This document shows, piece after piece, positions 45,564 through 64,000 of a stretch of DNA of 64,000 nucleotides. Position numbers and translations under genes: made by a program. Each line of letters starts with the position of its first letter. Position 1 is the stretch's first letter. The notes under the pieces are model-generated. The model saw only the letters and a program-made list of their open reading frames with translations. It was not told where the DNA came from and did not search any database. The stretch is from Minisyncoccota bacterium. Lineage in GTDB: Bacteria > Patescibacteriota > Minisyncoccia > Phycocordibacterales > UBA9973. The stretch is taken from assembly GCA_041666225.1 (NCBI GenBank), contig JBAYHJ010000005.1, forward strand, positions 2,320 to 66,319, read 5' to 3'.

Positions 45564-45688
45564 AGATGAGAAGTTAGGGTTCTTTAATATTTTGATTTGA
45601 TTGTTTAATTTTATTAGGTTTTCTTAGTTTCTTTATGGAAATTGAGAAAACCTAATAAATAATTTATAAACAATTAATACTTAGAAAA

Positions 45689-46868: not shown

Positions 46869-46941
46869 GCGTGTGTAGTTCAGTGGTAGAACGCTGTCCT
46901 GATAAGACAGAGGTCCTTGGTCCGATTCCAAATACCGTTGC
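46869..46941 (+). tRNA. tRNA-Ile(GAT)-like sequence: canonical acceptor-5', D-arm and anticodon arm, but T-arm/acceptor-3' do not fold (probable truncated tRNA / attachment-site remnant)
   Basis: GCGTGTG-TA-GTTC-AGTGGTA-GAAC-G-CTGTC-CTGATAA-GACAG then AGGTC CTTGG TCCGATT CCAAA TACCGTT; no CACACGC acceptor complement; immediately upstream of integrase. Confidence 0.45.
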
Positions 46942-47063
46942 GAACAAAGGCGTTTCTAAACATTAAAAGGGAGATAGGACACACTTCCGCAGAACAGTGT
47001 TCCGCGGCTCAGCTCAAAATTCGTTAAAAATTTAAAAAAACACTACATAAAATAGGAGTGTTT

Positions 47064-47957
47064 ATGGACATTAAAATGTTAGCAGAGAGGTTTTATAATC
47101 ACTCGTTACACATCCGTGGTTTCTCTAAGAATACGGTAAATAGATATAAAAGTATTATAGATCCGTATTGTGAATATTCTAATATATCAGAAATAGAACA
47201 GGTTTCAGAAAAAAACATAAGACAGATGTTTTTTTATGGTCGCACAGAGAGGAAGTGGTGCTCAGGAACTTTTATTTGCAACTACAAGGCACTTAAGGTG
47301 TTTTTTGACTGGTGTATCAAGGAAGGACATATCAAAAATAATCCTATGAAGTGTTTGGAGTTGCCCAAGCTAGAGAAACGATTACCACTAAAGTTAACAA
47401 AACAAGAGTCATCAAAATTATTGGAAGTAGTTTTTAATTATCCTTATGATTATGAATATTTAAGATATAGGAATTACGCAATTTTCTCACTTTTTTTATT
47501 TGCTGGACTTAGAAGGGCTGAGTTATTAAAATTGAAATTAACGAATATCGATATTGAGAATCAGACTATCTATATATCTCTAGGAAAGGGCAACAAGGAC
47601 AGGATTATTCCAATGAACTTTACTCTTACTGAAACCTTAAAAAGATATTTAGTGGAACGCAAAAGATTAAACAAAACATGCCCAGAGTTCTTTTGTTCTC
47701 TAAATCGTAACATGGGATATACAAATAATGGACTCAGGCGATTAGTAAAACAAATAAGAGAAGCATCTGGAATTAACTTCGCATGTCATAAACTTCGTCA
47801 TACTTTTGCTACGCTCCTTTTAGAAAATGGGTCAGATATTTATAGTATTTCTCGACTAATGGGCCATAGTGATATAAAGACGACTACAATCTATTTATAT
47901 GCCTCTGTAGAGCATTTAAGGGCACAGATGAGTAAACATCCACTAAACACAATATGA
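47064..47957 (+). CDS. int: Tyrosine recombinase / phage-type integrase (ATG 47064 preceded by aggag; track GTG at 47058)
   Basis: C-terminal catalytic HKLRHTFATLLLENGSDIYSISRLMGHSDIKTTTIYLY (H..R..H..Y), upstream R in LLFAGLRRAEL. Confidence 0.85.
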   Translation: MDIKMLAERFYNHSLHIRGFSKNTVNRYKSIIDPYCEYSNISEIEQVSEKNIRQMFFYGRTERKWCSGTFICNYKALKVFFDWCIKEGHIKNNPMKCLELPKLEKRLPLKLTKQESSKLLEVVFNYPYDYEYLRYRNYAIFSLFLFAGLRRAELLKLKLTNIDIENQTIYISLGKGNKDRIIPMNFTLTETLKRYLVERKRLNKTCPEFFCSLNRNMGYTNNGLRRLVKQIREASGINFACHKLRHTFATLLLENGSDIYSISRLMGHSDIKTTTIYLYASVEHLRAQMSKHPLNTI

Positions 47958-48117
47958 ATACGAAAATACCCCCTTTTACGTTAAGGAGGTATTCGTTCGA
48001 AGAAAACACAGGGGGGATAAGAGGGTAAATTTCTATTCATATGTCAGAATTTTTATATTTATATATAAAATATTTAATTATTGTATATAGTAGTTTAAAA
48101 TTACCTTCTTATCCATC

Positions 48118-50337
48118 TTATTCAGTTTCTTCTTTTCTGCCTTTAATCTTCACATTTCTCCAGCCCTGAATCTGTTTCTTGTCTATTGCTTTAGTTCCGT
48201 CAATGATATAACCACTATGATTAGGCAATTTTCTACCTAAAAATTTCTTATCAACAATTGGCAAATTATAGAATTTCGCGTATCGCGCGCACTCTTCGTA
48301 CATCGCATCTTTACTTACCCAAGCACTCGTTTCTTCTTCTAGGCAATCTTTAACAAAGTTAGCTACCATAGAGCCAGAAAGTAACATTTCTTTCTTTACT
48401 TCTTCTGGAGTTTTACCATAGCTAAAATCTTGCTTTTGTAAGATTTCACTTAATCCAAACAGTGATAAATTCAATAATCCAGATAATTCTTCTTTAGTTG
48501 TCATTTTATCTGTAAGGAATTTATCCACTCTTGTAATTTCCGCTAGGAACGGAACAATGATCCATCTGCTGAAATAGGCATCGTCATTGGTATCTTTTAC
48601 GTCTGGAATCTTATTACAAGCAAATGTTAATTTAGCGAAGTTCTGAAACTGAAATTGTTCTCCAAACTTCTTTTCACCGCTAATAATTCCACCACCAGTA
48701 GCTATCTTAAACAATCCATTGTCATTAATATCGCTGAAAGAAAGATCATCATATACATTTATATGTTTGTTATATAAGTGAGAAGATGCAAATTTGTCAG
48801 AGACTATCTTTTGTAGACTAATTCCTGAGACATTTTCTTTCCCTATAAATCTTTCGAACAATTTTATTAAGGTAGATTTTCCTGTATCTTTCTCTCCTAC
48901 AAAGATAATGGCTTTCTTAATGAAGTAATTTCTGTAGAGACAAAACCCGAACCATTCTAGAATTATTTTTTGATCCTCTGGCAAAATCTCATTCAGAAAG
49001 TTACTAATTACTGGACACATTGCATTCACATTGTAATTAACAGGAACCTTAGTGAAGAATAAGTATTCAGGACTATGTGGCATAAATTCTTTATTTTTAA
49101 TGTTAAATATTCCATTATTAAGATTAATGAAATTCTTATTAACATTAAAATCTTCTAAATCTGCCAAGGTTGAATCCTTAATCATTTCAATGATATTATT
49201 CTTGTTAGTAGTTGTCGTAAGCTCTTCTAATATTTCTTGAATTTCTGCCTTTATATTATTTAAGCCTAAAACGTAGATGCCATCTTTGTAGATGTAAATA
49301 TCGCGTATTCTTTCCCCGATGGTTTTAATGTGATATTTCTTAATGAGATATTTGGCAATTTCATATGATGTTTCTTTAGGGTGATTCAAGAAGTTACTCT
49401 TGAAATTTACATCTTCCGATATTTTTAGTACTAGATCTTTCTTCTTTTCCTGCTGGGATTGAATAGCAACCATAATTGTGTGTTCTCTATAATCCTTTCT
49501 TATCTGTGTTTTAACTCTTGCCCCAAGTGGTGAACTAAGCCATAGACGTTCCATTTGTTCTGCGTTGCAATCTGTCCAATAAGCTAGGTGCGAACATAAA
49601 GCTAAATCAGCCACAGAGTCATCGTTATTATGTGCAGTTGTATCACCGTTATACAGTAATTTAATTTTATCTCCTATTTTAGATGCGAACATTTTGGAAA
49701 GAATGATCTCATCGTCAATTGATGGAATAGCAACTGGAAATATGGCGGTTTGTTGCACTCCTTGCTTGCCCCATGGATAACCAATAATTGAGAGTAGTGC
49801 TATTGCTTCCTCTGGAGTAACTGTGCGGACAGGTAACGCTTCTTCAAGAGGGTTATTTGTCACAGTGAAATAACGACCTGATGTATAAGCTTCAAATGGG
49901 CCTTTCCTATTTGCTATAAGCTTAAGCGGTGCTGTAAGCGATAAATAAAGATGCAGTCCACTTTCAGACGGACTAATCTCTGTGTAAGTTCCTGCTTCCT
50001 TAATAAGCTTAAGAATATTCTCTCTTTCTTCATGCATGATTTCATTACCATCTAAACAATGATCTATATCAATTCCAAGAAGTAGTTGGTCTGGCGTAAA
50101 GACTATTCCAATACCTTGCGATACATTTACTACTTCTTCATACATGTTCCAAGTTGATGGGTTATCTGTTGATGCAGTTCTTCCATCTAAACCAATTGGC
50201 AACTTTGTAACTCGACCATCTTCTCCTGTTTCTTCATACCTCCAATTAACCCAGCACTTTTGTTCGCCAAAGGTTGATGCAAGTATGTTTTCATCTTCTT
50301 TTTTTTCTGTTTTTACTAATTCTTCTTCTATACTCAT
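48118..50337 (-). CDS. Bifunctional primase-polymerase (PrimPol N-domain) fused to D5/P4-alpha-like SF3 helicase
   Basis: N-terminal PrimPol motifs (GIGIVFTP...LGIDIDHC), Walker A FVGEKDTGKSTLIKLF, Walker B-like HINVYDD. Confidence 0.8.
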   Translation of the reverse strand: MSIEEELVKTEKKEDENILASTFGEQKCWVNWRYEETGEDGRVTKLPIGLDGRTASTDNPSTWNMYEEVVNVSQGIGIVFTPDQLLLGIDIDHCLDGNEIMHEERENILKLIKEAGTYTEISPSESGLHLYLSLTAPLKLIANRKGPFEAYTSGRYFTVTNNPLEEALPVRTVTPEEAIALLSIIGYPWGKQGVQQTAIFPVAIPSIDDEIILSKMFASKIGDKIKLLYNGDTTAHNNDDSVADLALCSHLAYWTDCNAEQMERLWLSSPLGARVKTQIRKDYREHTIMVAIQSQQEKKKDLVLKISEDVNFKSNFLNHPKETSYEIAKYLIKKYHIKTIGERIRDIYIYKDGIYVLGLNNIKAEIQEILEELTTTTNKNNIIEMIKDSTLADLEDFNVNKNFINLNNGIFNIKNKEFMPHSPEYLFFTKVPVNYNVNAMCPVISNFLNEILPEDQKIILEWFGFCLYRNYFIKKAIIFVGEKDTGKSTLIKLFERFIGKENVSGISLQKIVSDKFASSHLYNKHINVYDDLSFSDINDNGLFKIATGGGIISGEKKFGEQFQFQNFAKLTFACNKIPDVKDTNDDAYFSRWIIVPFLAEITRVDKFLTDKMTTKEELSGLLNLSLFGLSEILQKQDFSYGKTPEEVKKEMLLSGSMVANFVKDCLEEETSAWVSKDAMYEECARYAKFYNLPIVDKKFLGRKLPNHSGYIIDGTKAIDKKQIQGWRNVKIKGRKEETE

Positions 50338-50339
50338 AT

Positions 50340-50609
50340 TTATTCGGTCTTCGAAAAATTTCTAGTTACAAATTTTAAGAACATTTCTGATAACTTAAAT
50401 GCACCTTCGAGACATTTTTCATTATCCACAATACGATTTACCGACTTTTCAACATCTTTAGCTGAAATAAATTTTGAGGATAATACTAACGTCAATGCCA
50501 TCAGAAGATCCTCCTTTGAATACTTATCAGCAAAGTTCGTATATTTGTGTCCTATCATAATGTTTTCAACTCCTACTTTTGCCTTTTTAGGGCTATTTTT
50601 TTTACTCAT
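50340..50609 (-). CDS. Hypothetical small protein immediately upstream of the PrimPol gene
   Basis: 89-aa ORF; stop 2 nt before PrimPol start, same strand. Confidence 0.35.
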   Translation of the reverse strand: MSKKNSPKKAKVGVENIMIGHKYTNFADKYSKEDLLMALTLVLSSKFISAKDVEKSVNRIVDNEKCLEGAFKLSEMFLKFVTRNFSKTE

Positions 50610-50695
50610 ATTTTTTAATATATTATTTAATAATTGCAGGATGTTCCTTGCTTACTATTTCGTAAGCAAGGTTATCCCACATGGGGGGGCACTAT

Positions 50696-50869
50696 TTAGT
50701 TTTTACGATTACATTTCTCACAAAATGTAAGACTTCGAAGAATATCAAGAGATTCGAAAGCATTTTTCATAATCACTTGGCATACATCATCCATTGTCAC
50801 AACTTCTTCACAGAAGTTATCTATTTCTTCTTTGAGCACCTTGGGCTCTTTTGTTTTCTTTTTTAACAT
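50696..50869 (-). CDS. Possible 57-aa Cys-containing small protein (below the ORF-track length cut-off)
   Basis: Minus-strand ATG at 50869 to TAA at 50696: MLKKKTKEPKVLKEEIDNFCEEVVTMDDVCQVIMKNAFESLDILRSLTFCEKCNRKN. Confidence 0.25.
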   Translation of the reverse strand: MLKKKTKEPKVLKEEIDNFCEEVVTMDDVCQVIMKNAFESLDILRSLTFCEKCNRKN

Positions 50870-51042
50870 GTGTTTTTATAGTTAGGCTATTAATCTTCCT
50901 CTCGACTGAGGATTCCTTCTATTATTTCAAATCCTCTTTTCAGACTTTGATTTTTTTTGAATTAGTGGAAAACATAAAAAAAAGAGCCCTATTTTTAAGG
51001 ACTCTTTTTAAATTTCCACTAAAATTTCGGAAATTTCTTCCA

Positions 51043-51882
51043 CTAACTCCCACTCTTTTCTCTTATTTTCATATAAACACTTTGATTTCCATCAGTAAAT
51101 TCAAGTGATATACTCAACCCTTTTTTTGAAGTTTTGCGTTGTAATTCTTTTAATCTATCTTTTAATATTTCTTTTTTTCTAGGCACTGTTAGATAATGGT
51201 CATTCTTTAATTTACTTGTTTTAGGAGTTGTTTGATCAAAAACAAACTCAATTCTCTTTGGTACTTCGATTGGCAAAAGGCATTCATATAATTTACTTGC
51301 AACATTATCAATTGCACCTATCTCAACGCTTTTTGAACCAAAATTTAGTAGTCTTCCTCCGTTTGCAGTTTGTAAAAGAGTTTCATTATTATTATTATTA
51401 TTCATACCCGTTCTTTTTTCTGTATTTGAACTTTTGAGATGCTTAATGTCTGTTATTGGTGATTGAGCAGTATTACTACTTGTTACATCTTCAAGCATTT
51501 GTTTTAACTCAAGATCTCTTATTCCAGTGTTTGGTTTGTATTCATCTCCCAGCAATTCAGCTCTCTTTTGTTCTGCTTTAGACACTAAATACCGAAGATT
51601 GGTTTCTGCTTTATATAAAACTTTTTTATCTTTTTCTTCTCTATATGGAAGATAAATAATATCCAAGGGGATCAAATATCCCTTATCTTTAAAATTTAAA
51701 TTTCCAGCGGGTATTTTTAATTCTCCTAATAAATTAAGTAAAATATTATATTTTTGATTAAGTTCTTTGTATTCTCCTGGATACTTAATAATTATTTTTA
51801 CTATTTGTAAAATATCAAAAGCACACTGTGAGAAATTATGTAGTGTAGTAGCTTTTACTTCTGTTAGTTTTGTCCTTGGCAT
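51043..51882 (-). CDS. Hypothetical protein, 279 aa, first gene of the minus-strand PrimPol module
   Basis: Clean ORF; poly-Asn tract (NNNNNN); no motif. Confidence 0.4.
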   Translation of the reverse strand: MPRTKLTEVKATTLHNFSQCAFDILQIVKIIIKYPGEYKELNQKYNILLNLLGELKIPAGNLNFKDKGYLIPLDIIYLPYREEKDKKVLYKAETNLRYLVSKAEQKRAELLGDEYKPNTGIRDLELKQMLEDVTSSNTAQSPITDIKHLKSSNTEKRTGMNNNNNNETLLQTANGGRLLNFGSKSVEIGAIDNVASKLYECLLPIEVPKRIEFVFDQTTPKTSKLKNDHYLTVPRKKEILKDRLKELQRKTSKKGLSISLEFTDGNQSVYMKIREKSGS

Positions 51883-52043
51883 GGTTGGATTATATCAAAA
51901 ATATACTTTATAACCCAATATTAGGATTCCAATCCCTACTTATTAAGCATCTTCTAAAATTCAGTTTTAAGTGGTATACTTTTGACAGTTTATACTTATC
52001 AAGTGACTAGTTAAAATAACCTATAATATTACACAAATAACCC

Positions 52044-53141
52044 ATGTATTTAATTAATAAAGACAAGAATGACATTGAACAGCTTGAAGAAGTAACTTTT
52101 AAATCAGCAGGTTTTAAAGAACGACAACATCTCCAAGAATGGATAGCAAAGAATCCTTTATCACTAGGTGAGGATTTTCTAATTATTCAAAAAGAATTTG
52201 CTGGTTTTGATGATACAAATGAAAGACTTGATCTTCTGGCTTTAGATAAAAAAGGCAATTTAGTAGTTATTGAAAACAAGCTAGATGATACAGGTAGGAA
52301 TGTCGTATGGCAATCACTAAAGTATGCTTCATATTGTTCAAGCTTAACTAGTGAAGGTATTGAAGATATTTTTGATGAGTATTTAAAAAAGAATGGAATA
52401 AAAGAAAGTGCTAAACAGTTACTAGAAGACTTCTTTGATGATGAAGATTTTAAAGAGAAATTAAATACTGGAAATAGTCAAAGACTAATAATGGTTGCTC
52501 ACGAATTTAGAAAAGAAGTAACCTCAACTGTTTTATGGCTCCTTAACTTTGGATTGAGAGTTCAATGTTTTAAAGTTACACCTTACAAGCTAGGAGAAAA
52601 GTTTCTTTTAGATTTTTCTCAGATTATTCCTATTAAAGAAGCTGAAGATTATATTATAAAAGTTGCATCAAAGAATAGAGAAGAAATTGGTAATCAAGAA
52701 GAACTAGAAAATAGATATTCAGTTAGATATGATTTTTGGACAGAATTCTTAAAAGAAGTAAATAAAAAGAATAGTTTATGTGCAAACTTAAGTCCTAGCA
52801 AAGATGCTTGGATTGGCATAGGTTCTGGAGTAAGTGGAATAAATATAAACTTAGTTGTTACTAGGTCCTACGCTAGAGTAGAAATATATATAAATAAAGG
52901 AGTAGCTCAAAATAAAGAAGTGTTTGATTATTTCTTTAAACAGAAGGAGCAGATAGAAAAAGACTTTGGAGCACCCCTAGATTGGGCAAGAATGGATGAT
53001 AAGGTTACTTGTAGAATTAAGTGGCAATTAGATAGTGTTAGCATCTTTGAAGAAGCAGATCATAAGAAAATGAATGACTTCTTGATTGACGGACTAGAAA
53101 GAATGAAGAAAGCATTTACTGAACCAATAAAAAACTTATAA
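52044..53141 (+). CDS. PD-(D/E)XK nuclease-fold protein, probably DUF4268-like, preceding hsdR
   Basis: RLDLLALDKKGNLVVIENKLD (D...ExK), C-terminal domain of the kind often found beside type I R-M genes. Confidence 0.45.
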   Translation: MYLINKDKNDIEQLEEVTFKSAGFKERQHLQEWIAKNPLSLGEDFLIIQKEFAGFDDTNERLDLLALDKKGNLVVIENKLDDTGRNVVWQSLKYASYCSSLTSEGIEDIFDEYLKKNGIKESAKQLLEDFFDDEDFKEKLNTGNSQRLIMVAHEFRKEVTSTVLWLLNFGLRVQCFKVTPYKLGEKFLLDFSQIIPIKEAEDYIIKVASKNREEIGNQEELENRYSVRYDFWTEFLKEVNKKNSLCANLSPSKDAWIGIGSGVSGININLVVTRSYARVEIYINKGVAQNKEVFDYFFKQKEQIEKDFGAPLDWARMDDKVTCRIKWQLDSVSIFEEADHKKMNDFLIDGLERMKKAFTEPIKNL

Positions 53142-53157
53142 TAATTAAAATAAATTT

Positions 53158-56157
53158 ATGGCTTTCAATGAAAATACAAGAGTAAAGATTCCAGCAATAT
53201 TACATCTATCCAAATTAGGATATGATTATATTTCTCTTTCAAATGCAAAGATAGATGAGAATACAAATATCTTCACTGATATATTTAGAGAGAGTCTTTT
53301 AAAAATAAATAAAGATGTTGAAGAACATGATATAAAGAAAACTTTTGATGAAGTTTCTCTTACTCTTGATAATGATGATCTCGGACAAGAATTTTATAAT
53401 AAGTTGATAGCAACATCTGGAATAAAACTTATTGATTTTAAAGATTTTAGTAATAACACCTTTAATGTAGTCACTGAACTTACCTACAAGAATGGAGATG
53501 ATGAATTCCGTCCAGACATTACGCTTCTTATTAACGGTATGCCTCTTGTATTTATAGAAGTTAAAAAACCTAATAATCAAGAAGGAATACTCGCAGAAAG
53601 AAATAGAATAAATGTAAGATTTAAGAATAAGAAGTTTAAAAAGTTTATAAACATTTCTCAGATCTTGGTATTTTCCAATAACATGGAATACGACTCTGAA
53701 TCAATCGTTCCTATCCAAGGAGCATTTTATGGGACACCATCATATCAAAATGCGAACTTTAATTGTTTTAGAGAAGAAGAAAAAATTGATTTAGCTAGGA
53801 TTTTAAAAGAAGAAGATGAAGATATTGAGAATATTGTATTGAAAGATAACAATTTATTGACAATAAAACATTCCCAAGAATTTATTACTAATAAAGATAA
53901 CAATACTCCCACAAATCGGATTTTAACTTCGTTATTTAGCAAAGAAAGAATAGCATTGCTTTTGAGATACAGTATTGCTTATGTTCAAGAAAAGAACGGA
54001 CTTGAAAAACACATAATGCGTTATCCTCAATTGTTTGCAACAAAGGCAATTGAAAATAAACTAGAAAATGGAATAACTAAAGGTATCATTTGGCACACAC
54101 AAGGTAGTGGCAAAACAGCACTTGCTTATTATAATGTAAATTATTTAACTGACTATTATCAGAAGAAAGAAATAATCCCAAAATTCTATTTCATTGTAGA
54201 TAGAATTGATCTAATGATTCAAGCTAAGAACGAGTTTGTAAATCGTGGTCTTACCGTGCATATAGTTAATTCTAAGGAAGAGCTTACGAAAGACTTTAAT
54301 TTATTAACAGCAATTCATAACCTCTCAGGCAAAAGAGAAATTACTGTTGTTAATATTCAAAAGTTTAAGGATGATACGGATGTATTAAAAACAATTGATT
54401 ATAATATAAATACACAGAGAGTTTATTTCTTAGACGAAGTACATAGAAGTTACAATCCTACAGGAAGTTTCTTGGCTAACCTTTTTAATTCAGATCGCAA
54501 AGCTATCATGATAGGGTTAACAGGAACTCCACTTATAACAAAAGATAGATTCTCCAGAGAAATCTTTGGAGACTACATTCATAAATATTATTACAATTCG
54601 TCTATTGCAGATGGATATACTTTAAAATTAATTAGAGAAGGTATAGAAAATAATTATAAAATTCAACTCGAAAAAACCTTAAAAGAGGTTGAAGTGATGA
54701 GTGGAGATGTAGAAAAACGAGTTATATATTCACATGAAAAATTTGTAGAGCCGATGCTTGAATATATAGTTGAAGATTTTATTAAAAGTAGAATAAGATT
54801 TGCTGACAATAATATTGGTGGAATGGTTGTCTGTGATAGTTCTGATCAAGCTAAGAAGATGTCTGAAATTTTCGAAAGAAAATATAAAGACACTGATAAA
54901 AATTTAACATCAGCTCTTATTCTCCATGATGTTGGAGACAAGGAAGAAAGAAAAAAAGAAATTGAAGATTTTAAAGCTGGTAAAATAGACCTCTTGTTTG
55001 TATACAATATGTTACTTACAGGATTTGATGCTAAACGACTTAAAAAACTTTATATAGGTAGAATAATCAAAGACCATAACTTACTCCAAACACTTACTAG
55101 AGTAAACAGACCATATAAAGAATTTAGATATGGATATGTTGTAGATTTTGCAGATATTCGTAAGGAATTTGATTCTACAAATAAGGCATATTTTGATGAA
55201 CTGCAACTAGAACTTGGAGATGAGATGAAGACATACTCTGGATTGTTTGCTTCCCAAGAAGAAATTGAGCAAGATATACAAGATATTAAAGAAATGTTGT
55301 ATCACTATGACTTAAATAATGCTGAAACTTTCTCTCAACAAATCAATCAAATAGAAGATCGTAGTGTTATATTAGAGCTAAAAAAGGCCTTAGAAAAAGC
55401 AAGAAATTTATATAATATCATTCGCTTACAAGGAAACTATGAATTATTAGAAAAAATTGATTTTAAAAAACTCAATCAGCTTTATAGTGAAACTTCTCAT
55501 CGTTTAGATTTACTTAATCTTAAGGATTCTCTTGCAAATAGTACTGATACAACAAATCTTTTAAATATTGCACTTGAAGACATAGTTTTCATGTTTCGTA
55601 AGGTATCAGAAGAAGAACTTATAATTGCAGATCAACTTAAAAACATGCTTCGAAAAACTCGTGAAGCACTTGGTGGAAATTTTGATCCAAAGGACCCACA
55701 CTTTGTTTCTTTATATGATGAATTAAAAAGATTATTTAATAAAAAGAATCTAGATGAAATTACACAAGAAGAGATGACTCAAAATATTGGTTCATTACAG
55801 CAAATCTACGACAAAGTAACAGAACTAAACCGCAGGAATAATTTATTAAAAGCAAAATATGAGAATGATGCGAAGTATGCTCGAATTCATAAGCGAATAT
55901 TAGAAAAAGGAAACATTACTACACGAGAGAGTGAAATAGGAGAAACTCTTTTAGATATTAAGAAACAAGCTGATGAGAAGGTATTACTTAACGCTAAATT
56001 ATTAAACAATGAAAGTTACTTTGATGGATTAATGATGCAAATGGTAATTGGAGGTTTTGAGAAAACAAATATTAAACTTGATTCTGAGTCAGCTAAATAT
56101 ATAAATAAATGCGTCGTAAGTGAGTACATTAATGAATTTCAAGGCACAATAGCATAA
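53158..56157 (+). CDS. hsdR: Type I restriction enzyme R subunit
   Basis: N-terminal HsdR nuclease domain, helicase motif I IWHTQGSGKTALAYY, DEAH box FLDEVHRS, motif VI QTLTRVNR. Confidence 0.9.
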   Translation: MAFNENTRVKIPAILHLSKLGYDYISLSNAKIDENTNIFTDIFRESLLKINKDVEEHDIKKTFDEVSLTLDNDDLGQEFYNKLIATSGIKLIDFKDFSNNTFNVVTELTYKNGDDEFRPDITLLINGMPLVFIEVKKPNNQEGILAERNRINVRFKNKKFKKFINISQILVFSNNMEYDSESIVPIQGAFYGTPSYQNANFNCFREEEKIDLARILKEEDEDIENIVLKDNNLLTIKHSQEFITNKDNNTPTNRILTSLFSKERIALLLRYSIAYVQEKNGLEKHIMRYPQLFATKAIENKLENGITKGIIWHTQGSGKTALAYYNVNYLTDYYQKKEIIPKFYFIVDRIDLMIQAKNEFVNRGLTVHIVNSKEELTKDFNLLTAIHNLSGKREITVVNIQKFKDDTDVLKTIDYNINTQRVYFLDEVHRSYNPTGSFLANLFNSDRKAIMIGLTGTPLITKDRFSREIFGDYIHKYYYNSSIADGYTLKLIREGIENNYKIQLEKTLKEVEVMSGDVEKRVIYSHEKFVEPMLEYIVEDFIKSRIRFADNNIGGMVVCDSSDQAKKMSEIFERKYKDTDKNLTSALILHDVGDKEERKKEIEDFKAGKIDLLFVYNMLLTGFDAKRLKKLYIGRIIKDHNLLQTLTRVNRPYKEFRYGYVVDFADIRKEFDSTNKAYFDELQLELGDEMKTYSGLFASQEEIEQDIQDIKEMLYHYDLNNAETFSQQINQIEDRSVILELKKALEKARNLYNIIRLQGNYELLEKIDFKKLNQLYSETSHRLDLLNLKDSLANSTDTTNLLNIALEDIVFMFRKVSEEELIIADQLKNMLRKTREALGGNFDPKDPHFVSLYDELKRLFNKKNLDEITQEEMTQNIGSLQQIYDKVTELNRRNNLLKAKYENDAKYARIHKRILEKGNITTRESEIGETLLDIKKQADEKVLLNAKLLNNESYFDGLMMQMVIGGFEKTNIKLDSESAKYINKCVVSEYINEFQGTIA

Positions 56158-56160
56158 TAT

Positions 56161-57783
56161 ATGACACAAGATTTTACAATTCAAACAAAACAATTAATTG
56201 ATAACCTTAAGGGTATTTGTTCCTCTTATGGTTTAGGAAATGATGGTAATGAATTTAAAATCATTACTCAAGTGTTCTTGTATAAGTTTATGAACGATAA
56301 GTTTGGGTATGAAGTAAAACAGATTGATAATAGATTGCAAAAGGCTGAAAACTGGGAACAAGAAATATCTAAATATACTAACAAGGAGTATGATATGTTA
56401 CTTCTAAAAATGAATCCAGATAGTGCTAAACTTAAAAGAGAGCATTTTTTATCTAGTCTTCATAACAGACAAAACGATGAGGAGTTTGCTAAAATATTTG
56501 ATGATACATTGCTTGATATTTCTATTTTCAATAAAGATATCTTCTCTGTTAAGACTGAGACTGGAGCTAAAATAAAACTTTTTGATGAATTAAGTAATTT
56601 TATTACAGATAGTTCAAAGAGAGATGATTTTGCAAGAGCACTTATTAATCAACTTATTAATTTCAGTTTTGAGAAAACATTTAATCAAAAGTTTGATTTC
56701 TTTTCTACAATATTTGAATATCTTATTAAAGATTACAATAAAGATGGTGGAGGAAAATATGCTGAGTATTACACTCCTCATGTAGTATCAAAAATAATGG
56801 CTTCTATTTTAGTAGATAGTCCTGTAAAAAATGTAACTTGTTATGATCCATCTGCTGGTTCTGGAACTCTCCTTATGAATTTAGCACATGCTATCGGTGT
56901 GGATCGTTGTACTATTTACTCGCAAGATATTTCACAGAAGTCATCTAGTTTACTTCGTCTTAATCTAATTTTAAATAATCTAGTACATTCTATTCAAAAT
57001 ATTATTCAAGGTGATACTTTACTTGCTCCATATCATAAAACTGGTGATAAACTAATGACCTTTGATTATATAGTCTCGAACCCCCCATTCAAACTAGATT
57101 TTAGTAAAGAAAGAGATGATATCGAGTCTAAACAGAGTTATGGTCGTTTTTTTGCAGGAGTTCCTAAGGTTACACCTAAAAATCCAGACAAGATGGCAAT
57201 TTATTTGCTTTTTATTCAGCATATTATGTTTTCTTTAGCTTCTAATGGGAAAGCCGCTATTGTTGTTCCTACTGGATTTATCACTGCACAAAGTGGTATT
57301 GAAATGAAAATTAGAGAGAAATTAATTAATAAAAAAATGTTACGAGGAGTAGTTTCTATGCCGAGTAATATATTTGCGACTACTGGTACAAATGTATCTA
57401 TTTTATTTATTGATAAAACTAATACAGATGGTGATGTAATTCTCATGGATGCTTCTAGTTTAGGAACGAGTGTAAAAGAGGGTAAAAATAAAAAAACATT
57501 ACTTTCCCCAGAAGAAGAACAATTGATTATTAGTACTTTTAATAAACGTAAAGTAGAAGAAGATTTTTCTGTGGTTGTTTCGTATGACCAGATAAAAGAG
57601 AAGGGCTATTCTTTTAGTGCTGGGCAATATTTTGAGGTAAAAATTGAGTATATTAATATAACTCAAAAAGAATTTGGAACAAAAATGAGCAGATATAAAT
57701 TAAACCTTGCAGAATATTTCAAACAATCTCATGAGTTAGAACAAGAAATTAAAAAACAGTTGGAATTGTTAAAATATGAATAA
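56161..57783 (+). CDS. hsdM: Type I R-M N6-adenine DNA methyltransferase subunit
   Basis: HsdM N-terminal domain, AdoMet motif DPSAGSGTLL, catalytic NPPF (VSNPPFKLDF). Confidence 0.9.
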   Translation: MTQDFTIQTKQLIDNLKGICSSYGLGNDGNEFKIITQVFLYKFMNDKFGYEVKQIDNRLQKAENWEQEISKYTNKEYDMLLLKMNPDSAKLKREHFLSSLHNRQNDEEFAKIFDDTLLDISIFNKDIFSVKTETGAKIKLFDELSNFITDSSKRDDFARALINQLINFSFEKTFNQKFDFFSTIFEYLIKDYNKDGGGKYAEYYTPHVVSKIMASILVDSPVKNVTCYDPSAGSGTLLMNLAHAIGVDRCTIYSQDISQKSSSLLRLNLILNNLVHSIQNIIQGDTLLAPYHKTGDKLMTFDYIVSNPPFKLDFSKERDDIESKQSYGRFFAGVPKVTPKNPDKMAIYLLFIQHIMFSLASNGKAAIVVPTGFITAQSGIEMKIREKLINKKMLRGVVSMPSNIFATTGTNVSILFIDKTNTDGDVILMDASSLGTSVKEGKNKKTLLSPEEEQLIISTFNKRKVEEDFSVVVSYDQIKEKGYSFSAGQYFEVKIEYINITQKEFGTKMSRYKLNLAEYFKQSHELEQEIKKQLELLKYE

Positions 57784-59035
57784 GAAATATAAATTAAAAG
57801 AATTATGTGAAATTACTTCAAGTAAGCGAATATTTGCACATGAATACGTAGAAAAAGGTATATCATTTTTTCGAAGTAAAGAAATTATTGAATTAGCTAA
57901 TGAACAAAAAATAGATGAGCCATTATTCATTAGTGAAGAAAGATATAATGAGATAAAGAAAAAATTTAACATTCCTAAAAATGGAGATATTTTACTTTCT
58001 GCAATAGGAGCTAATCTCGGAATCCCTTATTGGGTTAATTTGGATTTTGAATTTTATTTTAAAGATGGAAATGTTATTTGGTTTAGAAACTTTTCATCAA
58101 AATTAGACAGTGAGTATTTGTTTTGGTGGATGAATACAAATTATTTTTTTAAACAATTTACAGATAAAGCAATTGGAGCTGCACAAAAAGCTCTCACTAT
58201 TGATTCATTAAATGAATATTTAGTTGAAGTTCCAAGTTTAAAAGAGCAAAGAGATGCTATAAAAATTTTTAGAGCAATATCAAAAAAAATTATAGTAAAC
58301 AACAAAATCAACGCTGAACTAGAAGTAATGGCAAAAACCTTATATGATTACTGGTTTATACAATTTGATTTTCCAAATAAAAATAATAAACCTTATAAAA
58401 ATAGTGGGGGTAAAATGATTTACAGTAATGAATTAAAAAAAGAAATCCCTGAAGGATGGGAAGTTGATAGAATAAATAAAAAGATTAAAATCGAATCAGG
58501 CTTTCCTTTTAATTCTGATGATTATTGCGAAAATGGAAAATATCAAATTATAACAATTAAGAACGTACAAGATGGATATTTAGATACTTCAACAGTAGAT
58601 AAAATTGACCTTATTCCTGATAATATATCAGATTTTTGTGTATTGGAAATTGGTGATGTCTTAATGTCTCTTACAGGCAATGTTGGAAGGATGTGTTTTG
58701 TGGATAAAGAAAATCTACTTCTAAACCAAAGAGTTGGTAAGTTGCTTGGAGAAAAAGAATTTATAATTTATACTTATTTATTTTTTAAGAGACCAGAAAA
58801 TCAAAAGAGGTTAGAAAAAATAGCTGGTGGAAGCTCACAGTCAAATTTAAGCCCAATAAATGCAGTAAAAGATTTTTTCATTATACCTTCACAAAATATA
58901 TTAAATGATTTTTCAAAAATTATCATCCCTATTTTTGAACAAATAATAAGAAATAAAAAAGAAAACAGAGAACTCTCAGAACAACGAGATTGGCTCCTTC
59001 CAATGCTAATGAACGGACAAGTAACCGTTAAATAA
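57776..59035 (+). CDS. hsdS: Type I R-M specificity subunit with two target-recognition domains
   Basis: Duplicated TRD architecture with conserved central and C-terminal coiled-coil repeats; overlaps hsdM by 8 nt. Confidence 0.85.
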   Translation: MNKKYKLKELCEITSSKRIFAHEYVEKGISFFRSKEIIELANEQKIDEPLFISEERYNEIKKKFNIPKNGDILLSAIGANLGIPYWVNLDFEFYFKDGNVIWFRNFSSKLDSEYLFWWMNTNYFFKQFTDKAIGAAQKALTIDSLNEYLVEVPSLKEQRDAIKIFRAISKKIIVNNKINAELEVMAKTLYDYWFIQFDFPNKNNKPYKNSGGKMIYSNELKKEIPEGWEVDRINKKIKIESGFPFNSDDYCENGKYQIITIKNVQDGYLDTSTVDKIDLIPDNISDFCVLEIGDVLMSLTGNVGRMCFVDKENLLLNQRVGKLLGEKEFIIYTYLFFKRPENQKRLEKIAGGSSQSNLSPINAVKDFFIIPSQNILNDFSKIIIPIFEQIIRNKKENRELSEQRDWLLPMLMNGQVTVK

Positions 59036-59040
59036 CAAAT

Positions 59041-59724
59041 ATGAACCCACTTAAAACAAATGGCTTAATAATTCAAAATTTTCCACAAAAGGAGTATGAG
59101 GCCATTCATTCAATTTTAAGTAGTAAGTATGCAGAAAGAAAAGAATATGAGCATTTTGCAGGAGCTTGGAATGCTGTGGCGTACAGATATAAAGCTGCTG
59201 TTGATCACGGACAAGATTTCATTGAATTATTCAAATTACATGGAACAGCACCACAACCAGAAAAAAGATATCTACAAGAAAAAGCTCTTTTTGATCACTT
59301 CAGCTCTTGCTTTTCTGTTTTTGAATCAATATGCTATGGATTTTTTGCTATAGGGTCTATTATTAAACCAGAATATTTTTCTATTATTGATCCAGTAGAT
59401 CAACGAAAAATATCCCCAGAGACAACTAAGAGAATCTTTCAAGGTGCATTTCCAGATGAGCAAATTACTAAAACGTTAATAGAGTTAACTTCTGATCCAG
59501 AATTTGAAAATATTAGGAATACTAGAAATATTCTTACTCACAGAACAGCACCAGGAAGAAAGATTTATCTTAATATAGGAAAGGATGAATCACCGCCAAC
59601 TGAATGGAAATTGAATAATAAACCCTTAGATGAATTTATAGTTAAATCAAACGAAGAAAATATGAAAAGACTTTTAAATAATTTATTAAATACAGGTGAA
59701 GAATTTTGTAAATCATATCTATAA
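59041..59724 (+). CDS. Hypothetical protein with HEPN-like Rx4H motif, directly downstream of hsdS
   Basis: All-alpha composition; NIRNTRNILTHR contains R-x4-H; 6 nt after the hsdS stop. Confidence 0.4.
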   Translation: MNPLKTNGLIIQNFPQKEYEAIHSILSSKYAERKEYEHFAGAWNAVAYRYKAAVDHGQDFIELFKLHGTAPQPEKRYLQEKALFDHFSSCFSVFESICYGFFAIGSIIKPEYFSIIDPVDQRKISPETTKRIFQGAFPDEQITKTLIELTSDPEFENIRNTRNILTHRTAPGRKIYLNIGKDESPPTEWKLNNKPLDEFIVKSNEENMKRLLNNLLNTGEEFCKSYL

Positions 59725-59728
59725 TTAT

Positions 59729-60691
59729 ATGGCACATAAAAATATTATAAAAATACCAAATAAGATAAAAGAGCAATTAGAAACATTTAGTCAGGATGAT
59801 GTTGTTGTAGCTTGTGTAAAATATATTCCTAATGAAGAAATTAATAAATATAAACACTTAAACATACAATACATTAATGGAGAACTTATTGTTCCTCCTT
59901 CAGATACCCCAGATCCTAATGCTGGAAAATTCTCTCGTGCTAATTTAGAGGGATTTGAAAAGAAAAGAACAGATTTACCAAAAATTTCAAAAGATTTTAG
60001 TTTTGATGCTCCCAATTGGGGTGGGTATGGGACTCATGAGGTTTCTCACACACGAGAAGTATTTCAAAAAGATTTTTATCCACCAAAAGAAGTTGAACTA
60101 AAAATTGAACAAGTAGAAAAAAGAGAGAATGGTTTTAAAATTAAATTTTCCATAGAACAAGTAATCAATCGTCGTACTCCAAATTTTGAGAAAGAACTGC
60201 TTTATAACCTAAATTTATTACAAGAAAATGTTGGGATGATAGATGTATTTCCAAGTATTGCTACCCTAGCAGATTATGCAAAGACCGTTTATATAGATTG
60301 GGAAATATTACCACCTGGAACTGTTGATGAAATCATAGAAGCTTTATTAAAAAATCAAAGAACAGGAAGTATTACACCTGATCAGATAAAAATAACGAGA
60401 GAAAGAATAGCTGTTATGGCAAAATTGAAACCTACTGTATATATAAAAGGTATGACTGGTTTTTTAAGGTATTTTGGTGCAAAGTTTGGAGAGGATTTTG
60501 TTGTTTTTGAAAATATAAAATATGGAAATGCTTTATATATAATGTATGATTCTTGGGAGAAGTTAAGTAAGAAGAGTAGAACAGAGTTATTAAGTGGACC
60601 AAGAGAAGGATTTGATCGTATAGAACATAAAAATGGATGGGAAAATAATTTAGCAAAATTTGTTAGAGAATATAGGTATAAAAATAAATAG
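59729..60691 (+). CDS. Hypothetical protein, 321 aa (start at ATG 59729)
   Basis: Clean ORF starting 5 nt after the preceding stop; no motif. Confidence 0.4.
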   Translation: MAHKNIIKIPNKIKEQLETFSQDDVVVACVKYIPNEEINKYKHLNIQYINGELIVPPSDTPDPNAGKFSRANLEGFEKKRTDLPKISKDFSFDAPNWGGYGTHEVSHTREVFQKDFYPPKEVELKIEQVEKRENGFKIKFSIEQVINRRTPNFEKELLYNLNLLQENVGMIDVFPSIATLADYAKTVYIDWEILPPGTVDEIIEALLKNQRTGSITPDQIKITRERIAVMAKLKPTVYIKGMTGFLRYFGAKFGEDFVVFENIKYGNALYIMYDSWEKLSKKSRTELLSGPREGFDRIEHKNGWENNLAKFVREYRYKNK

Positions 60692-60698
60692 TAATTAG

Positions 60699-61448
60699 AT
60701 GTCTGAATTTTATAATCCAAATAGAACAAGAAATATATATGACCCTAAAAGCAAGGAGCCTTTTAAACTATCTCGTTCAAAGATAGAGAACTTTATGCAT
60801 TGTAAAAAATGCTTTTACTTGGACCGTAGATTAGGAATTGGACAACCACCAGGATATCCTTTTAATTTAAACACCGCTGTGGATACCTTGCTTAAGAAAG
60901 AATTTGATATACATAGAGCCAAACACAAGACACATCCTCTAATGAAGGCGTATGGACTCAATGAGGTGCCTTTTAGTCATGAAATGATAGATGAATGGAG
61001 GGAGAATTTTAAAGGAGTGCAGTATCTTCACAAGCCTACTAATTTTATCGTTACTGGAGCAGTGGATGATTTATGGCAAGATGAAAATGGAGAAATTATT
61101 GTAGCAGACTATAAAGCTACAAGCAAAACTTCGCAGGTTACACTTGATGCTGATTGGCAGGATGGATACAAAAGACAAATGGAAATATATCAATGGCTAC
61201 TTCGTCACAATGGATTAAAAGTTTCAAATACTGGTTACTTTGTATATTGTAATGGAAAGACTGATAGAGAAGCATTTGATGGAAAGCTAGAATTTGATAT
61301 TGATCTATTGCCATACACAGGAGATGATTCATGGGTGGAAGGAACACTTAATGAGATTAAAGAATGCCTTGATGGACCTATGCCAGAGCCAGATTCTGAA
61401 TGTGATTTGTGTAATTATAGGAAAGCAGTTAGTGAAGTTGAAAAATAA
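60699..61448 (+). CDS. Cas4-like / RecB-family PD-(D/E)XK nuclease with Cys cluster (no CRISPR array nearby)
   Basis: N-terminal CKKCFYL, GAVDDL (motif II), EIIVADYKATSK (E-x-K with DYK), QMEIYQW (QxxxY), C-terminal CLDG...ECDLCNY. Confidence 0.6.
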   Translation: MSEFYNPNRTRNIYDPKSKEPFKLSRSKIENFMHCKKCFYLDRRLGIGQPPGYPFNLNTAVDTLLKKEFDIHRAKHKTHPLMKAYGLNEVPFSHEMIDEWRENFKGVQYLHKPTNFIVTGAVDDLWQDENGEIIVADYKATSKTSQVTLDADWQDGYKRQMEIYQWLLRHNGLKVSNTGYFVYCNGKTDREAFDGKLEFDIDLLPYTGDDSWVEGTLNEIKECLDGPMPEPDSECDLCNYRKAVSEVEK

Positions 61449-61452
61449 AATT

Positions 61453-61683
61453 ATGCATATCCCAGATGAAAAATTCGTTAGATTTAAAGAAATCTTTAAA
61501 GAAGAATTTGGAGAGGATGAATTTAATAAAATGACTAATAAACAATTATTTGAAAGTGCAACAAAACTTATAACTTTAATGGAGGCTGTTTACAAACATC
61601 AAAATTCTCATAATAATAAGGAAAGGATAGATAAAGCTTTTGATGTTTTATTTGATGAAACATTAAAAAATTATCGTAAATAA
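61453..61683 (+). CDS. Small hypothetical protein, 76 aa
   Basis: ATG 61453 five nt after the nuclease stop; helical; no motif. Confidence 0.35.
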   Translation: MHIPDEKFVRFKEIFKEEFGEDEFNKMTNKQLFESATKLITLMEAVYKHQNSHNNKERIDKAFDVLFDETLKNYRK

Positions 61684-61735
61684 TATCACTAAATTAATGA
61701 TTTATTAAAATGTATTTAAGTGATACAATACCAAT

Positions 61736-62839
61736 ATGTCAATTCGAGACAGTATAGGGTCATATAAAATTCAAAATCTTGGTGGCACAAGAGCCAGTAA
61801 AGGTTTCTCATATCAAAATCATTGGGCGATTAAGAAAATTATAGAATTACATACCTCCGAAAAAGATTATGTTGTTTTATTTGAAGTATATGATGATGTA
61901 AGTGTTCTTGATAGTGAATCAAATCCTAGTAAAATTGATATTTATCAAGTTAAAAGTACCCAAAACCAAACCCCTGTAACTCTTTCAAAATTATGTCAAA
62001 AAACTAAACAAGAAAAATCAATTTTAGCAAAATTATTTTTAACTAAGGTGCAATTGCCAAAAGAATTAAATAACATTGTTGAAAAAATGTTTATTGTATC
62101 AAACTCATCTTATCAATGCAAAACTAAATTTCATTCATCTACTAGCTCTGAAATATCAGTAGGAGATCATTATAGATCTGAGTTAAAAAGTAAAAAAATT
62201 GATGAACTATCAAAGCAATCTGGAATACAAAATTTAGAAATACAGAAATTATTAAATATTACATTTTTAATAAAATCTCCTATATCTTTTGATGAACCAT
62301 ATAGACAAATAAGAGATATGCTCCAAGACTTTTTTAAGACAAAATTTAAAGAATTTTTTGATGTTACACCTTTTTATAATCAGTTATTGGTTGAAATTGA
62401 GAATAGATGTGAATCAGAGAAAATTGATGGATACGATGAAACAATAAAAAGTAAAGCTATTACAAAAAAATGGTTAGATGGTATACTAAAAGAAATAACT
62501 CCTGATCTTAAACAACAATTAAGAATGATAGAACAGGAATTAAGTAAAGAGGGTTGGGGTCCAGAAAAGATCATTAAACTAGGAGAAGGGTGGCGGCAAA
62601 TGGAAATAGATAATTTTAGCGATAAGGAATATTTTAATGGTAAACTAATAACAGTGTTAGATACTTTGATTGTAAAATTTAATTTAAATTATAAAAAATA
62701 TAGTGATATCACCGATATTATTTTAAAAGAACTAAAAGATAATTATTATGATATTATTGAAAATAGAGAAGATTATTATATAAAAGCATTAATATTATGG
62801 AGAACCTTAGATCATCGCATAAAAACCTTAGAAAATTAG
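61736..62839 (+). CDS. Protein with N-terminal Cap4/DUF4297-like nuclease domain (Lamassu LmuA-like effector candidate)
   Basis: KGFSYQNHWAIKKIIEL, DYVVLFEVYDDVSVLD and IDIYQVKST resemble the GFxYQ ... D ... QxK signature. Confidence 0.45.
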   Translation: MSIRDSIGSYKIQNLGGTRASKGFSYQNHWAIKKIIELHTSEKDYVVLFEVYDDVSVLDSESNPSKIDIYQVKSTQNQTPVTLSKLCQKTKQEKSILAKLFLTKVQLPKELNNIVEKMFIVSNSSYQCKTKFHSSTSSEISVGDHYRSELKSKKIDELSKQSGIQNLEIQKLLNITFLIKSPISFDEPYRQIRDMLQDFFKTKFKEFFDVTPFYNQLLVEIENRCESEKIDGYDETIKSKAITKKWLDGILKEITPDLKQQLRMIEQELSKEGWGPEKIIKLGEGWRQMEIDNFSDKEYFNGKLITVLDTLIVKFNLNYKKYSDITDIILKELKDNYYDIIENREDYYIKALILWRTLDHRIKTLEN

Positions 62840-62863
62840 TAAAAAGTTTAAGTAAAAAAGAAC

Positions 62864-64000
62864 ATGAAAAAATTCGTATTGGAAGAAATAAAACTAATAT
62901 CACAGAAAGAACAAAGAGCAAATAATTTTATCTTTGATAAAGGATTTAATGTTATAACTGGGCAGAATGGTGTTGGGAAGTCTCATTTGATAAAAAGTAT
63001 TCCGTGGGCTTTTGGGGCTGAACCATCAACTTTACATCCCAATTGGATAAAAGCTGATATAAGTGTTATTGTTAAATTTTCAATTAATAAAGTGCGTTAT
63101 AAAATATTAAGGACAAATAAAACTTTCTTAGTTTTTGATGATGAAAATAATTTAATTAATCAATCTGTTAGTAGTATAACTAAAGAATTATCTCCTTTTT
63201 TATCAGAATTATTTGATTTTGATTTGAAGCTTCCATTAAAGGAAGGAGAGAAAAAATTAACACAGCTTACACCAGCCTACTATTTTTCACCTTTTTATGT
63301 TGATCAAGATAGTGGCTGGACAAATTTATGGCAAAGTTTTAAGAATCTTCAAATGTTTTCGAACTGGAGAAGACCGTTGCTTGATACTTTTACAAATATT
63401 TTATCTTTAGAACTACAAAAAACAAAAAACAGTATTAGTGAGGAGAAAATGAGATTAAAAGAGTTCGAGAATAGGCAAGATTTATTTAATAAGACCTTTG
63501 AAAACACCGAAGAGGAAATTGTTAATTTAAATTTTAATATTAATTTTGATAATTATAAAAAAGAAATTGATGAATTAATAATAAAACTAGATGGTTTGCA
63601 AAAAAAAGAATTTGAATATAAAGAATCAATAAGAAATTTGTCAAACAAAAAGGTTATTCTCGAAAATCAAGTTAATATAGTTGAATCGTCTATAAACTCT
63701 TTAAACAAAGAACACAATTTAATTAATAAAATAAAAGATCATATATTAGAATGTCCCACCTGTGGTGCTGAGTATGAAAATTCTTTTATTGATAAGTTCA
63801 ACATAGCTCAAGATTTATATACTGCACAAGAATTATTGGTTGATTTAAGAGAGGACCTTAATAAAATTAATAATAATATATTGGAAATTAAAAATATAGA
63901 TATTGATAATTCAAAAGAAATAAATAAATTAAATGATATTTTAAATAAAAAAAATCATAAAGTAACTATAAATGAAATAATTAAGAAGGAAGGAGAAAAA
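62864..64000 (+). CDS. P-loop SMC/Rad50-like ATPase with coiled coil and CPTC zinc-hook-like motif; 3' end beyond window (LmuB-like candidate)
   Basis: Walker A GQNGVGKS near N-terminus, long heptad region, CPTCGAEY in mid coiled coil; no stop before 64000. Confidence 0.6.
   Translation, partial: MKKFVLEEIKLISQKEQRANNFIFDKGFNVITGQNGVGKSHLIKSIPWAFGAEPSTLHPNWIKADISVIVKFSINKVRYKILRTNKTFLVFDDENNLINQSVSSITKELSPFLSELFDFDLKLPLKEGEKKLTQLTPAYYFSPFYVDQDSGWTNLWQSFKNLQMFSNWRRPLLDTFTNILSLELQKTKNSISEEKMRLKEFENRQDLFNKTFENTEEEIVNLNFNINFDNYKKEIDELIIKLDGLQKKEFEYKESIRNLSNKKVILENQVNIVESSINSLNKEHNLINKIKDHILECPTCGAEYENSFIDKFNIAQDLYTAQELLVDLREDLNKINNNILEIKNIDIDNSKEINKLNDILNKKNHKVTINEIIKKEGEK

Follow-up and report, generated by a model that had tools for sequence, protein, structure and literature searches.

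A probable integrative element carrying defence genes at a tRNA-Ile gene of a Patescibacteria bacterium

The last part of a 64,000-nt stretch of DNA from a Minisyncoccota bacterium (contig JBAYHJ010000005.1; the whole stretch is called the window below) very probably belongs to a site-specific integrative element that lies in the T-arm of a tRNA-Ile(GAU) gene, is at least 19.7 kb long, and occupies a site that in this lineage is found between an RRM gene and the ATP-synthase operon. Its integrative nature, proposed in a preliminary description of the window, is supported by a start inside the tRNA gene, a tyrosine recombinase nearby and a site that is empty in relatives. Gene content also changes at the tRNA as that description had stated. 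To the left of 46869 are housekeeping genes (DnaB, CysS, aldolase, L25, L31, prfB and an RRM protein) with insertion sequence (IS) elements interspersed; to the right follow integrase, replication, restriction-modification (R-M), HEPN-like, Cas4-like and Lamassu genes.

The window is carried by the ENA contig ERZ27249449:k141_1670229 (69,112 bp), in which the window begins at position 2,523 and which runs only 2,590 bp past the window end. It was compared with 187 fetched loci, with labels of the form L001. The prfB product shares 89%, 80% and 76% identity with those of uncultured Parcubacteria/Paceibacterota metagenome-assembled genomes, RAAC4_OD1_1 among them, and the host is therefore a bacterium of the Candidate Phyla Radiation (CPR)/Patescibacteria. 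Its G+C content is ~31%.

The tRNA-Ile junction and the site in relatives

Positions 46869..46931 (+ strand) comprise the 5′ 63 nt of a tRNA-Ile(GAT) gene of host origin and form the left junction (attL side), as indicated by Rfam, alignment and BLAST. The Rfam tRNA match extends over 46869-46939 (44.3 bits), an interval in which ARAGORN called no tRNA. In the alignment with the tRNA-Ile(GAT) genes of L005 and L006, the window agrees from nucleotide 1 to ...GATTCCAA, the last matching letters being ...GGTCCGATTCCAA at position 46931. Past this point the relatives read GCACACGCA and the window reads ATACCGTTGCG. BLAST against the L005 tRNA likewise returned 63 nt at 98.4% identity. The intact tRNA-Ile(GAT) of relatives is 73 nt long and directly follows prfB and the RRM gene, whereas the final ~10 nt of the tRNA match in the window deviate (ATACCGTT vs. 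GCACACGCA). Judging by the alignment, other sequence has taken the place of the T-stem closing pair and of the acceptor 3′ strand, and the predicted fold lacks an acceptor stem, in contrast to those of the relatives' tRNAs. The break lies within the T-loop/T-stem region, one of the classic positions at which tyrosine integrases cross over.

The first DNA of the island (46932..47063, +) starts with ATACCGTTGCG..., takes the place of the tRNA 3′ end and cannot be aligned to L087 or L088. Between the broken tRNA and the start of the integrase gene, a local G+C-rich stretch (46960-47010) contains two TTCCGC copies and a short ACACT/AGTGT inverted repeat, which are possible recombinase or regulatory sites.

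The synteny comparison suggested in the preliminary description found the site empty in every relative examined. L087 (GCA_964449885.1) and L088 are contigs of other samples that were found by an exact-sequence look-up of the RRM protein, which is 100% identical to that of the window; the DNA of the region is 94.5% identical. The left flank is collinear with L087 up to the tRNA. Both loci have an intact tRNA-Ile behind the RRM gene, with atpI-atpB-atpE-atpF-atpH-atpA-atpG immediately after it. The order of RRM gene, tRNA-Ile and atp operon is likewise present in L006, L007 and L176-L179, and an empty site was counted for L005-L012. The primase, PDC-S11, LmuA, LmuB, the small open reading frames (ORFs) of the backbone and the four ORFs of the contig extension have no homologue in any of the 187 fetched loci. 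A homologue of the integrase occurs in one of them (L121, distant, 31% identity) and is absent from the tRNA-Ile site of relatives. The R-M genes, genes A and B and the Cas4-like gene recur elsewhere among these loci. Since all relatives lack this gene order and have an empty site, we interpret the segment as an insertion.

The tRNA-Ile site shows further variation among relatives. In L087 (709-719 and 947-964, with the equivalent in L088), the first 11 nt of the tRNA are copied ~70 nt upstream and its last ~19 nt (GATTCCTACCACACGCACA) ~110 nt downstream. We read these partial copies as scars that earlier integration or excision left at tRNA-Ile, which makes the site a recurrent integration hot spot. 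The strand of the tRNA also varies between the RRM gene and the atp operon. It is encoded on the minus strand in L005 (8382-8454), L006 (12095-12167) and L176 (8660-8732) and on the plus strand in other relatives (L007, L008, L010, L012 and L087 were compared), the orientation of the flanking genes being constant. The truncated plus-strand tRNA of the window has the T-arm (CCTTGG/CCAAG) of the minus-oriented copies in L005, L006 and L176, from which the other plus-strand copies differ.

Backbone, defence cargo and the gene pair A-B

The integrase gene (47064..47957, +) starts 125 nt past the tRNA-like segment and faces into the island. It encodes a Xer-like tyrosine recombinase of ~300 aa (Pfam Phage_integrase, 5e-33) that matches the XerA/XerD/XerC-like models of NCBIfam, all below their cut-offs. 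The replication module follows on the opposite strand. Its main gene (48118..50337, −) encodes a 739-aa primase-polymerase/helicase fusion (NrS1-1_pol-like_HBD 3e-12, D5_N 3e-14, DUF5906 9e-18) that matches the C-terminus of P4-family primases (TIGR01613, 4.7e-50) and is 26-27% identical to phage primases. Three further minus-strand ORFs of unassigned function, spanning 50340..51882 (89 aa, 50340-50609; 57 aa, 50696-50869; 279 aa, 51043-51882), have no match in Pfam, NCBIfam or PHROGs, and the terminator scan placed a strong terminator-like hairpin at 51009-50979. The catalytic motifs of integrase and primase look intact, and no packaging or structural genes were detected in the island. In elements of this type, integration and excision are the task of the recombinase, while the circle released by excision is copied by the replication module; the same roles would be expected here.

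The cargo consists of ten plus-strand genes in 52044-64000, spaced by −17 to 52 nt; the terminator scan placed no plus-strand terminator-like hairpin between them. The co-linear orientation and tight spacing that had been attributed to the whole region thus hold for these ten genes; they do not hold for the backbone, where the integrase gene is on the plus strand and the replication module on the minus strand. The cargo amounts to ~12.5 kb of defence genes in an operon-like row, possibly a single operon.

The first cargo gene (52044..53141, +) is a candidate defence system that matches the PADLOC profile for PDC-S11 over its full length (PDLC04913, 1.1e-150 over 1-364). Its product contains a Pfam DUF4268 domain (3e-35) and an N-terminal part resembling NucS-like nucleases (NucS_C, 1e-4). 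The adjacent, full-length genes of HsdR, HsdM and HsdS make up a complete type I R-M system according to Pfam and PADLOC. The restriction subunit HsdR (53158..56157, +) has HSDR_N, ResIII/SWI2_SNF2 and T1R_D3 domains and matches PADLOC REase_I. The methyltransferase HsdM (56161..57783, +) matches N6_Mtase (7e-64) and PADLOC MTase_I (9.5e-265 over 2-540 of 541 positions), and the specificity subunit HsdS (57776..59035, +) has two target-recognition domains (Methylase_S in two stretches; PADLOC Specificity_I, 1e-90). The system would cut unmethylated DNA.

Beyond genes A and B, a Cas4-like PD-(D/E)XK nuclease of the Cas4/AddB type is encoded at 60699..61448 (+; PDDEXK_1 2.7e-13, Cas_Cas4 1e-4). 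Its cysteine pattern is compatible with an Fe-S cluster, and its score against TIGR00372 (31.6 bits) lies below the Cas4 family cut-off of 65. The array search found no CRISPR array near the gene, and there are no cas genes among its neighbours. The gene call at 61432..61683 (+) is an 83-aa ORF of unassigned function, without a family match in Pfam, PADLOC or PHROGs.

The Lamassu genes close the row. The effector LmuA (61736..62839, +) begins with a Cap4 dsDNA nuclease domain at its N-terminus (Cap4_nuclease 7e-29; PADLOC LmuA 2.1e-46, full length). LmuB, its SMC-like ATPase, is encoded from 62864 to the window end at 64000 and on to window-equivalent 64585 (+; PADLOC LmuB, 3.3e-106 over 1-376 of 565 positions). 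The window contains 379 N-terminal codons of lmuB, which is complete on the contig at 573 aa (L001 11129-12850) and has a CxxC hook-like motif. The two genes are 24 nt apart, and there is no third gene for LmuC at lmuA-lmuB. What had been called Lamassu-like genes is accordingly a complete two-gene (type I) system of LmuA-Cap4 and an adjacent SMC-like LmuB. LmuB may sense DNA ends or replication intermediates and release the Cap4 nuclease of LmuA. The preliminary description had counted at least three defence systems, a number that is reached only if a candidate is included: two are established (type I R-M and Lamassu), alongside the PADLOC candidate PDC-S11, the uncharacterised pair A-B and a solitary Cas4-like nuclease.

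Genes A and B have no significant match in Pfam, NCBIfam, PADLOC or PHROGs. Gene A (59041..59724, +) encodes an all-alpha protein of 227 aa that we consider, with moderate confidence, to be HEPN-like from its motif and its AlphaFold2 (AF2) model. It has 112 homologues, and R162-N163-x3-H167, corresponding to the HEPN Rx4-6H motif, is invariant in 48 of them. The AF2 model is all helical (pLDDT, the predicted local distance difference test, 90.8). Matches to HEPN_Cthe2314 are weak and below the cut-off; they cover the motif region and were obtained for six of the 48 members (best member 2.6e-4; window protein E 0.036). HepT toxins recur among the non-significant Foldseek matches (E ~0.3, probability ≤0.63). 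Its partner, gene B (59729..60691, +), encodes a 320-aa alpha/beta protein of unassigned fold and function. Its family counts 682 homologues after clustering at 90%, and clustering at 50% identity gives 1,570 clusters. The best 150 homologues are all stand-alone proteins of ~320 aa or shorter fragments. The model is alpha/beta (pLDDT 85.8), with no significant fold match in PDB or BFVD. Homologues as far away as Sphingomonas, Dadabacteria and Moranbacteria retain 53-60% identity, which points to wide horizontal transfer.

A and B are a pair that is conserved between phyla and often stands behind type I R-M. Upstream DNA was available for 44 metagenomic loci with a B of at least 46% identity, and in 43 of them an A homologue stands directly before B; the 25 more distant B genes examined are accompanied by other genes or stand without a partner. 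An hsdRMS-A-B cassette is found in L094 and L097-L100 (HsdM 59-80% identical). In L099 it lies behind a serine recombinase, with a 70% identical Cas4-like gene two genes further on. The occurrence of the R-M-A-B cassette on other backbones indicates that the cargo is modular and mobile. In Sphingomonas mesophila, A-B follows a different type I operon (M-S-R order), and in a Moranbacteria genome it occurs without R-M beside a serine recombinase and a terminase. N6_Mtase, Phage_integrase, Eco57I, ResIII and Resolvase are the Pfam families most often seen among 122 neighbour proteins from 17 further A-B loci. Plasmid-borne distant B homologues adjoin genes annotated as Lit-family, AAA ATPase and helicase, ImmA/IrrE and VapC.

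The surroundings of L099 are themselves island-like. Positions 739-15325 of this locus (Ga0076259_102) hold a stack of serine recombinase, helix-turn-helix (HTH) protein, M78 peptidase, hsdRMS, A, B, TspO, Cas4-like and PDDEXK_4 genes, which continues with further genes and ends at a tRNA-Asp. Two wider definitions of the A-B module were rejected. The Cas4-like gene is not a member, as it does not stand beside A-B in L091, L092 and L094, and the link to R-M is not obligate, as many A-B loci have no R-M within reach (L092 has none).

A could be an RNase toxin that stays latent under the control of B, acting as regulator or sensor, and in the window's subclade the pair would back up type I restriction. 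We tentatively suggest, without regarding it as likely, that A-B is an undescribed two-gene anti-phage or abortive-infection module that has become a fixed R-M appendage in one subclade, a PrrC-like second line of defence. Such an RNase-based abortive-infection or toxin module would support R-M by the logic of PrrC with EcoprrI. The analysis shows the junction in the tRNA, relatives with an empty site, the domains of the encoded proteins and a conserved A-B pair; that the element is mobile today, that each of its systems is active, that A-B is functionally coupled to R-M and that the cargo is one operon is what we infer.

Composition, the right end and alternative explanations

Several observations weigh against a site-specific integrative element. 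Tetranucleotide distances of the island overlap those of core windows, and neither codon-usage distance (p = 0.55) nor GC3, the G+C content at third codon positions (p = 0.88), sets the island apart from the core. Neither the window nor the 2,590-bp extension yielded an attR or a direct repeat, and a pattern scan of IMG/VR with the primase returned no relatives. The disrupted tRNA is not regenerated by island sequence, its acceptor 3′ strand being lost. The junction is seen in one metagenome contig only; L002 and L004 (contigs of SRR6484324) are 100% identical to the source contig and do not cross the junction, and they may have the same data origin and hence not be independent.

The compositional comparison that had been proposed as a check is uninformative, as codon usage, GC3 and tetranucleotides do not separate island from core. 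The core has a G+C content of 31.5% and the island one of 29.7%, and codon usage is host-like throughout the island except in the integrase and Cas4-like genes. The core region 2500-10000 has the lowest G+C (25-29%) and a tetranucleotide deviation as large as that of the island. Its genes are ordinary (agmatine deiminase, CN hydrolase, EamA transporter, SET-domain protein and 7TM histidine kinase). Since this core region deviates as much as the island, composition is a poor island marker in this genome. The preliminary description had held that an island would be contradicted by a core-like composition together with the same gene order in all relatives; the composition is indeed indistinguishable from that of the core, but the gene order is absent from all relatives. 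With composition uninformative, the case for the island is carried by synteny.

The right boundary lies outside the window, as had been stated, and outside the source contig too. If the island reaches the contig end, it is at least 19.7 kb long (46932 to window-equivalent 66590). Searches for att repeats gave only chance-level matches in 44-64 kb and in the contig extension. After lmuB, the extension encodes four small ORFs on the minus strand, then a LOOT RNA and the beginning of a protein with a signal peptide; it contains no tRNA fragment. The LOOT RNA (Rfam RF03000, 87.8 bits, E 9e-17) is at L001 14536-14655, equivalent to window 66271-66390. One extension ORF of 62 aa is weakly SymE/AbrB-like, and the signal-peptide ORF after the LOOT RNA runs off the contig. 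Exact-protein look-ups for the right flank with LmuA, the integrase, the 167-aa ORF and the RRM protein led back to the same contig or else to contigs that lack the island.

A search with AtpE led to L186 (ERZ27249449 k141_150256), a 2.2-kb contig of the same sample that opens inside a minus-strand tRNA-Ile. Its positions 1-32 are nucleotides 1-32 of tRNA-Ile, identical to those of the window, and are followed by atpI-atpB-atpE. It is only 77% identical to L087 across atpB-atpF and therefore cannot be assigned to this genome. L186 could be the island's far flank or could come from another Parcubacteria population. In the former case, we hypothesise that the island is flanked by inverted tRNA-Ile copies, which could also explain the tRNA orientation flips among relatives. 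The far junction of an integrative element would be a tRNA-Ile 3′ fragment, expected to read ...GATTCCAAGCACACGCA, or an intact tRNA-Ile beside atpI.

A tRNA that is not regenerated is unusual for tDNA islands. In a small genome this rich in A+T, tRNA-Ile(GAU) is presumably essential, so that an intact copy should exist. Integration that damages a presumably essential tRNA gene raises the question of where the functional copy is located.

The unrestored tRNA 3′ end also fits a different history, which is possible if doubtful. The tRNA-Ile site may be a recombination hot spot at which the integrase/primase backbone, R-M-A-B, PDC-S11 and Lamassu arrived separately and in succession, and at which they are now fixed and unable to excise. 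Other scars at the same tRNA in L087/L088, the presence of R-M-A-B on other backbones without PDC-S11 or Lamassu, and a codon usage that is host-like save in the integrase and Cas4-like genes would be consistent with successive insertions. Against this, the ten cargo genes form one tight co-directional array without intergenic terminators, the integrase and primase retain intact-looking catalytic motifs, and no att-like repeats or extra recombinases lie between the modules.

There is very little chance that the junction is an assembly chimera, in which the assembly fused the chromosome contig, at the shared tRNA segment, with an episomal plasmid or satellite whose attP resembles tRNA-Ile. A single MEGAHIT contig carries the junction, no independent contig crosses it, and the same-sample L186 starts inside tRNA-Ile beside atpI. 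The shared segment of 63 nt, however, is far below the k-mer length that the contig name implies (k=141), collinearity of the left flank with L087 extends up to the tRNA, and codon usage equals that of the host. Least credible is an ancestral segment deleted in relatives, which would suit the host-like composition but not a segment that is absent from all relatives, whatever their tRNA orientation or divergence, begins exactly inside a tRNA gene beside an integrase, and consists of typical mobile and defence genes. An integrative element at tRNA-Ile remains the reading that we prefer.

Two smaller insertions were observed to the left of the tRNA. Relative to L005, a 3.4-kb insertion separates the aldolase and L25 genes (window 37585-40793). 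It contains a 123-aa ORF, a full IS30-family transposase gene (38195-39208, −), an IS200-like Y1 transposase gene (39471-40145) and a NYN-domain gene. The Y1 transposase gene is flanked by two 14-nt tandem duplications (39417-39445 and 40142-40170) that are mutually near-inverted, a RAYT/REP-like arrangement. The second insertion (44543-46192), in the prfB-RRM interval, is not found in relatives. It carries a 167-aa ORF without a family match and an IS30-like transposase that lacks the N-terminal HTH and shares 44% identity with the copy at 38195.

Comparison with known systems

The element is of a kind already known: a tDNA island of tycheposon- or phage-inducible chromosomal island (PICI)-like build with defence cargo. 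It resembles the tDNA islands of the Islander type in having a tyrosine integrase beside a tRNA, a junction inside the T-arm and a site that is empty in relatives (PMC4383910). Regeneration of the target tRNA belongs to the Islander definition of such an island (PMC4383910). Unlike islands so defined, the window has a tRNA that is not regenerated and in which the acceptor 3′ strand is replaced, and the contig ends in or just past the island with no attR seen.

Cargo-carrying tycheposons and PICI-like elements have a layout of tRNA, inward-facing integrase, small replication module and cargo (bioRxiv 10.1101/2020.12.28.424599). By gene order, the island follows this plan with its tRNA site, inward tyrosine recombinase, adjacent primase/helicase and ~10 kb or more of cargo (bioRxiv 10.1101/2020.12.28.424599). 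Further similarities to tycheposons are the streamlined host genome and the partial tRNA copies that accumulate at the site. The island differs from them in its Parcubacteria host, in having no detected capsid or terS gene, and in a cargo devoted to defence instead of nutrient acquisition.

P4-like satellites combine an integrase at a tRNA with a P4-family primase-helicase and variable defence cargo. The island shares the integrase at a tRNA, the primase match (TIGR01613, 4.7e-50) and the defence cargo. Unlike these satellites, its host is not an enterobacterium, and no psu, sid, delta or cos-type genes were detected when the small ORFs were scanned against PHROGs.

Two of the cargo modules can be compared with described systems. 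Lamassu without LmuC (type I or clade S) is a described antiphage form, and the genes of the window agree with it in an LmuA with Cap4 followed by a short SMC-like LmuB, LmuC being absent (PMC12663957). No difference from this form was detected at the sequence level tested. R-M-linked HEPN proteins comprise at least 16 clades, with PrrC-EcoprrI as the paradigm (PMC3710099). As in that system, a HEPN-motif protein is encoded directly after hsdRMS (PMC3710099). Unlike PrrC, gene A has no ABC-ATPase domain, its partner is the 320-aa B, and A-B also occurs without R-M (L092). The pair is widespread and a concrete candidate for a new defence module.

Acquired defence islands have precedent in this group of bacteria. 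The Patescibacteria genome nzgw456 contains a horizontally acquired genomic island with a full type I R-M system, found by IslandViewer, and the fraction of Patescibacteria genes acquired by horizontal gene transfer is enriched in defence functions (PMC12455944). Both that island and the present one are acquired islands encoding type I R-M in a CPR genome (PMC12455944). The present island has more than that of nzgw456: a Lamassu system, PDC-S11 and the HEPN pair as further cargo, and a tRNA junction that is defined. CPR/Patescibacteria have tiny genomes, mostly without CRISPR. In a genome the size of RAAC4_OD1_1 (contig of 693 kb), a ~20-kb island with four or five defence modules would occupy ~3%. 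Two features merit further work: a tRNA that is not regenerated, and the HEPN-like A-B pair, which is conserved but unannotated. The island points to a bulk acquisition of immunity by small-genome cells, through an element of the same build as the tycheposons known from marine bacteria with streamlined genomes.

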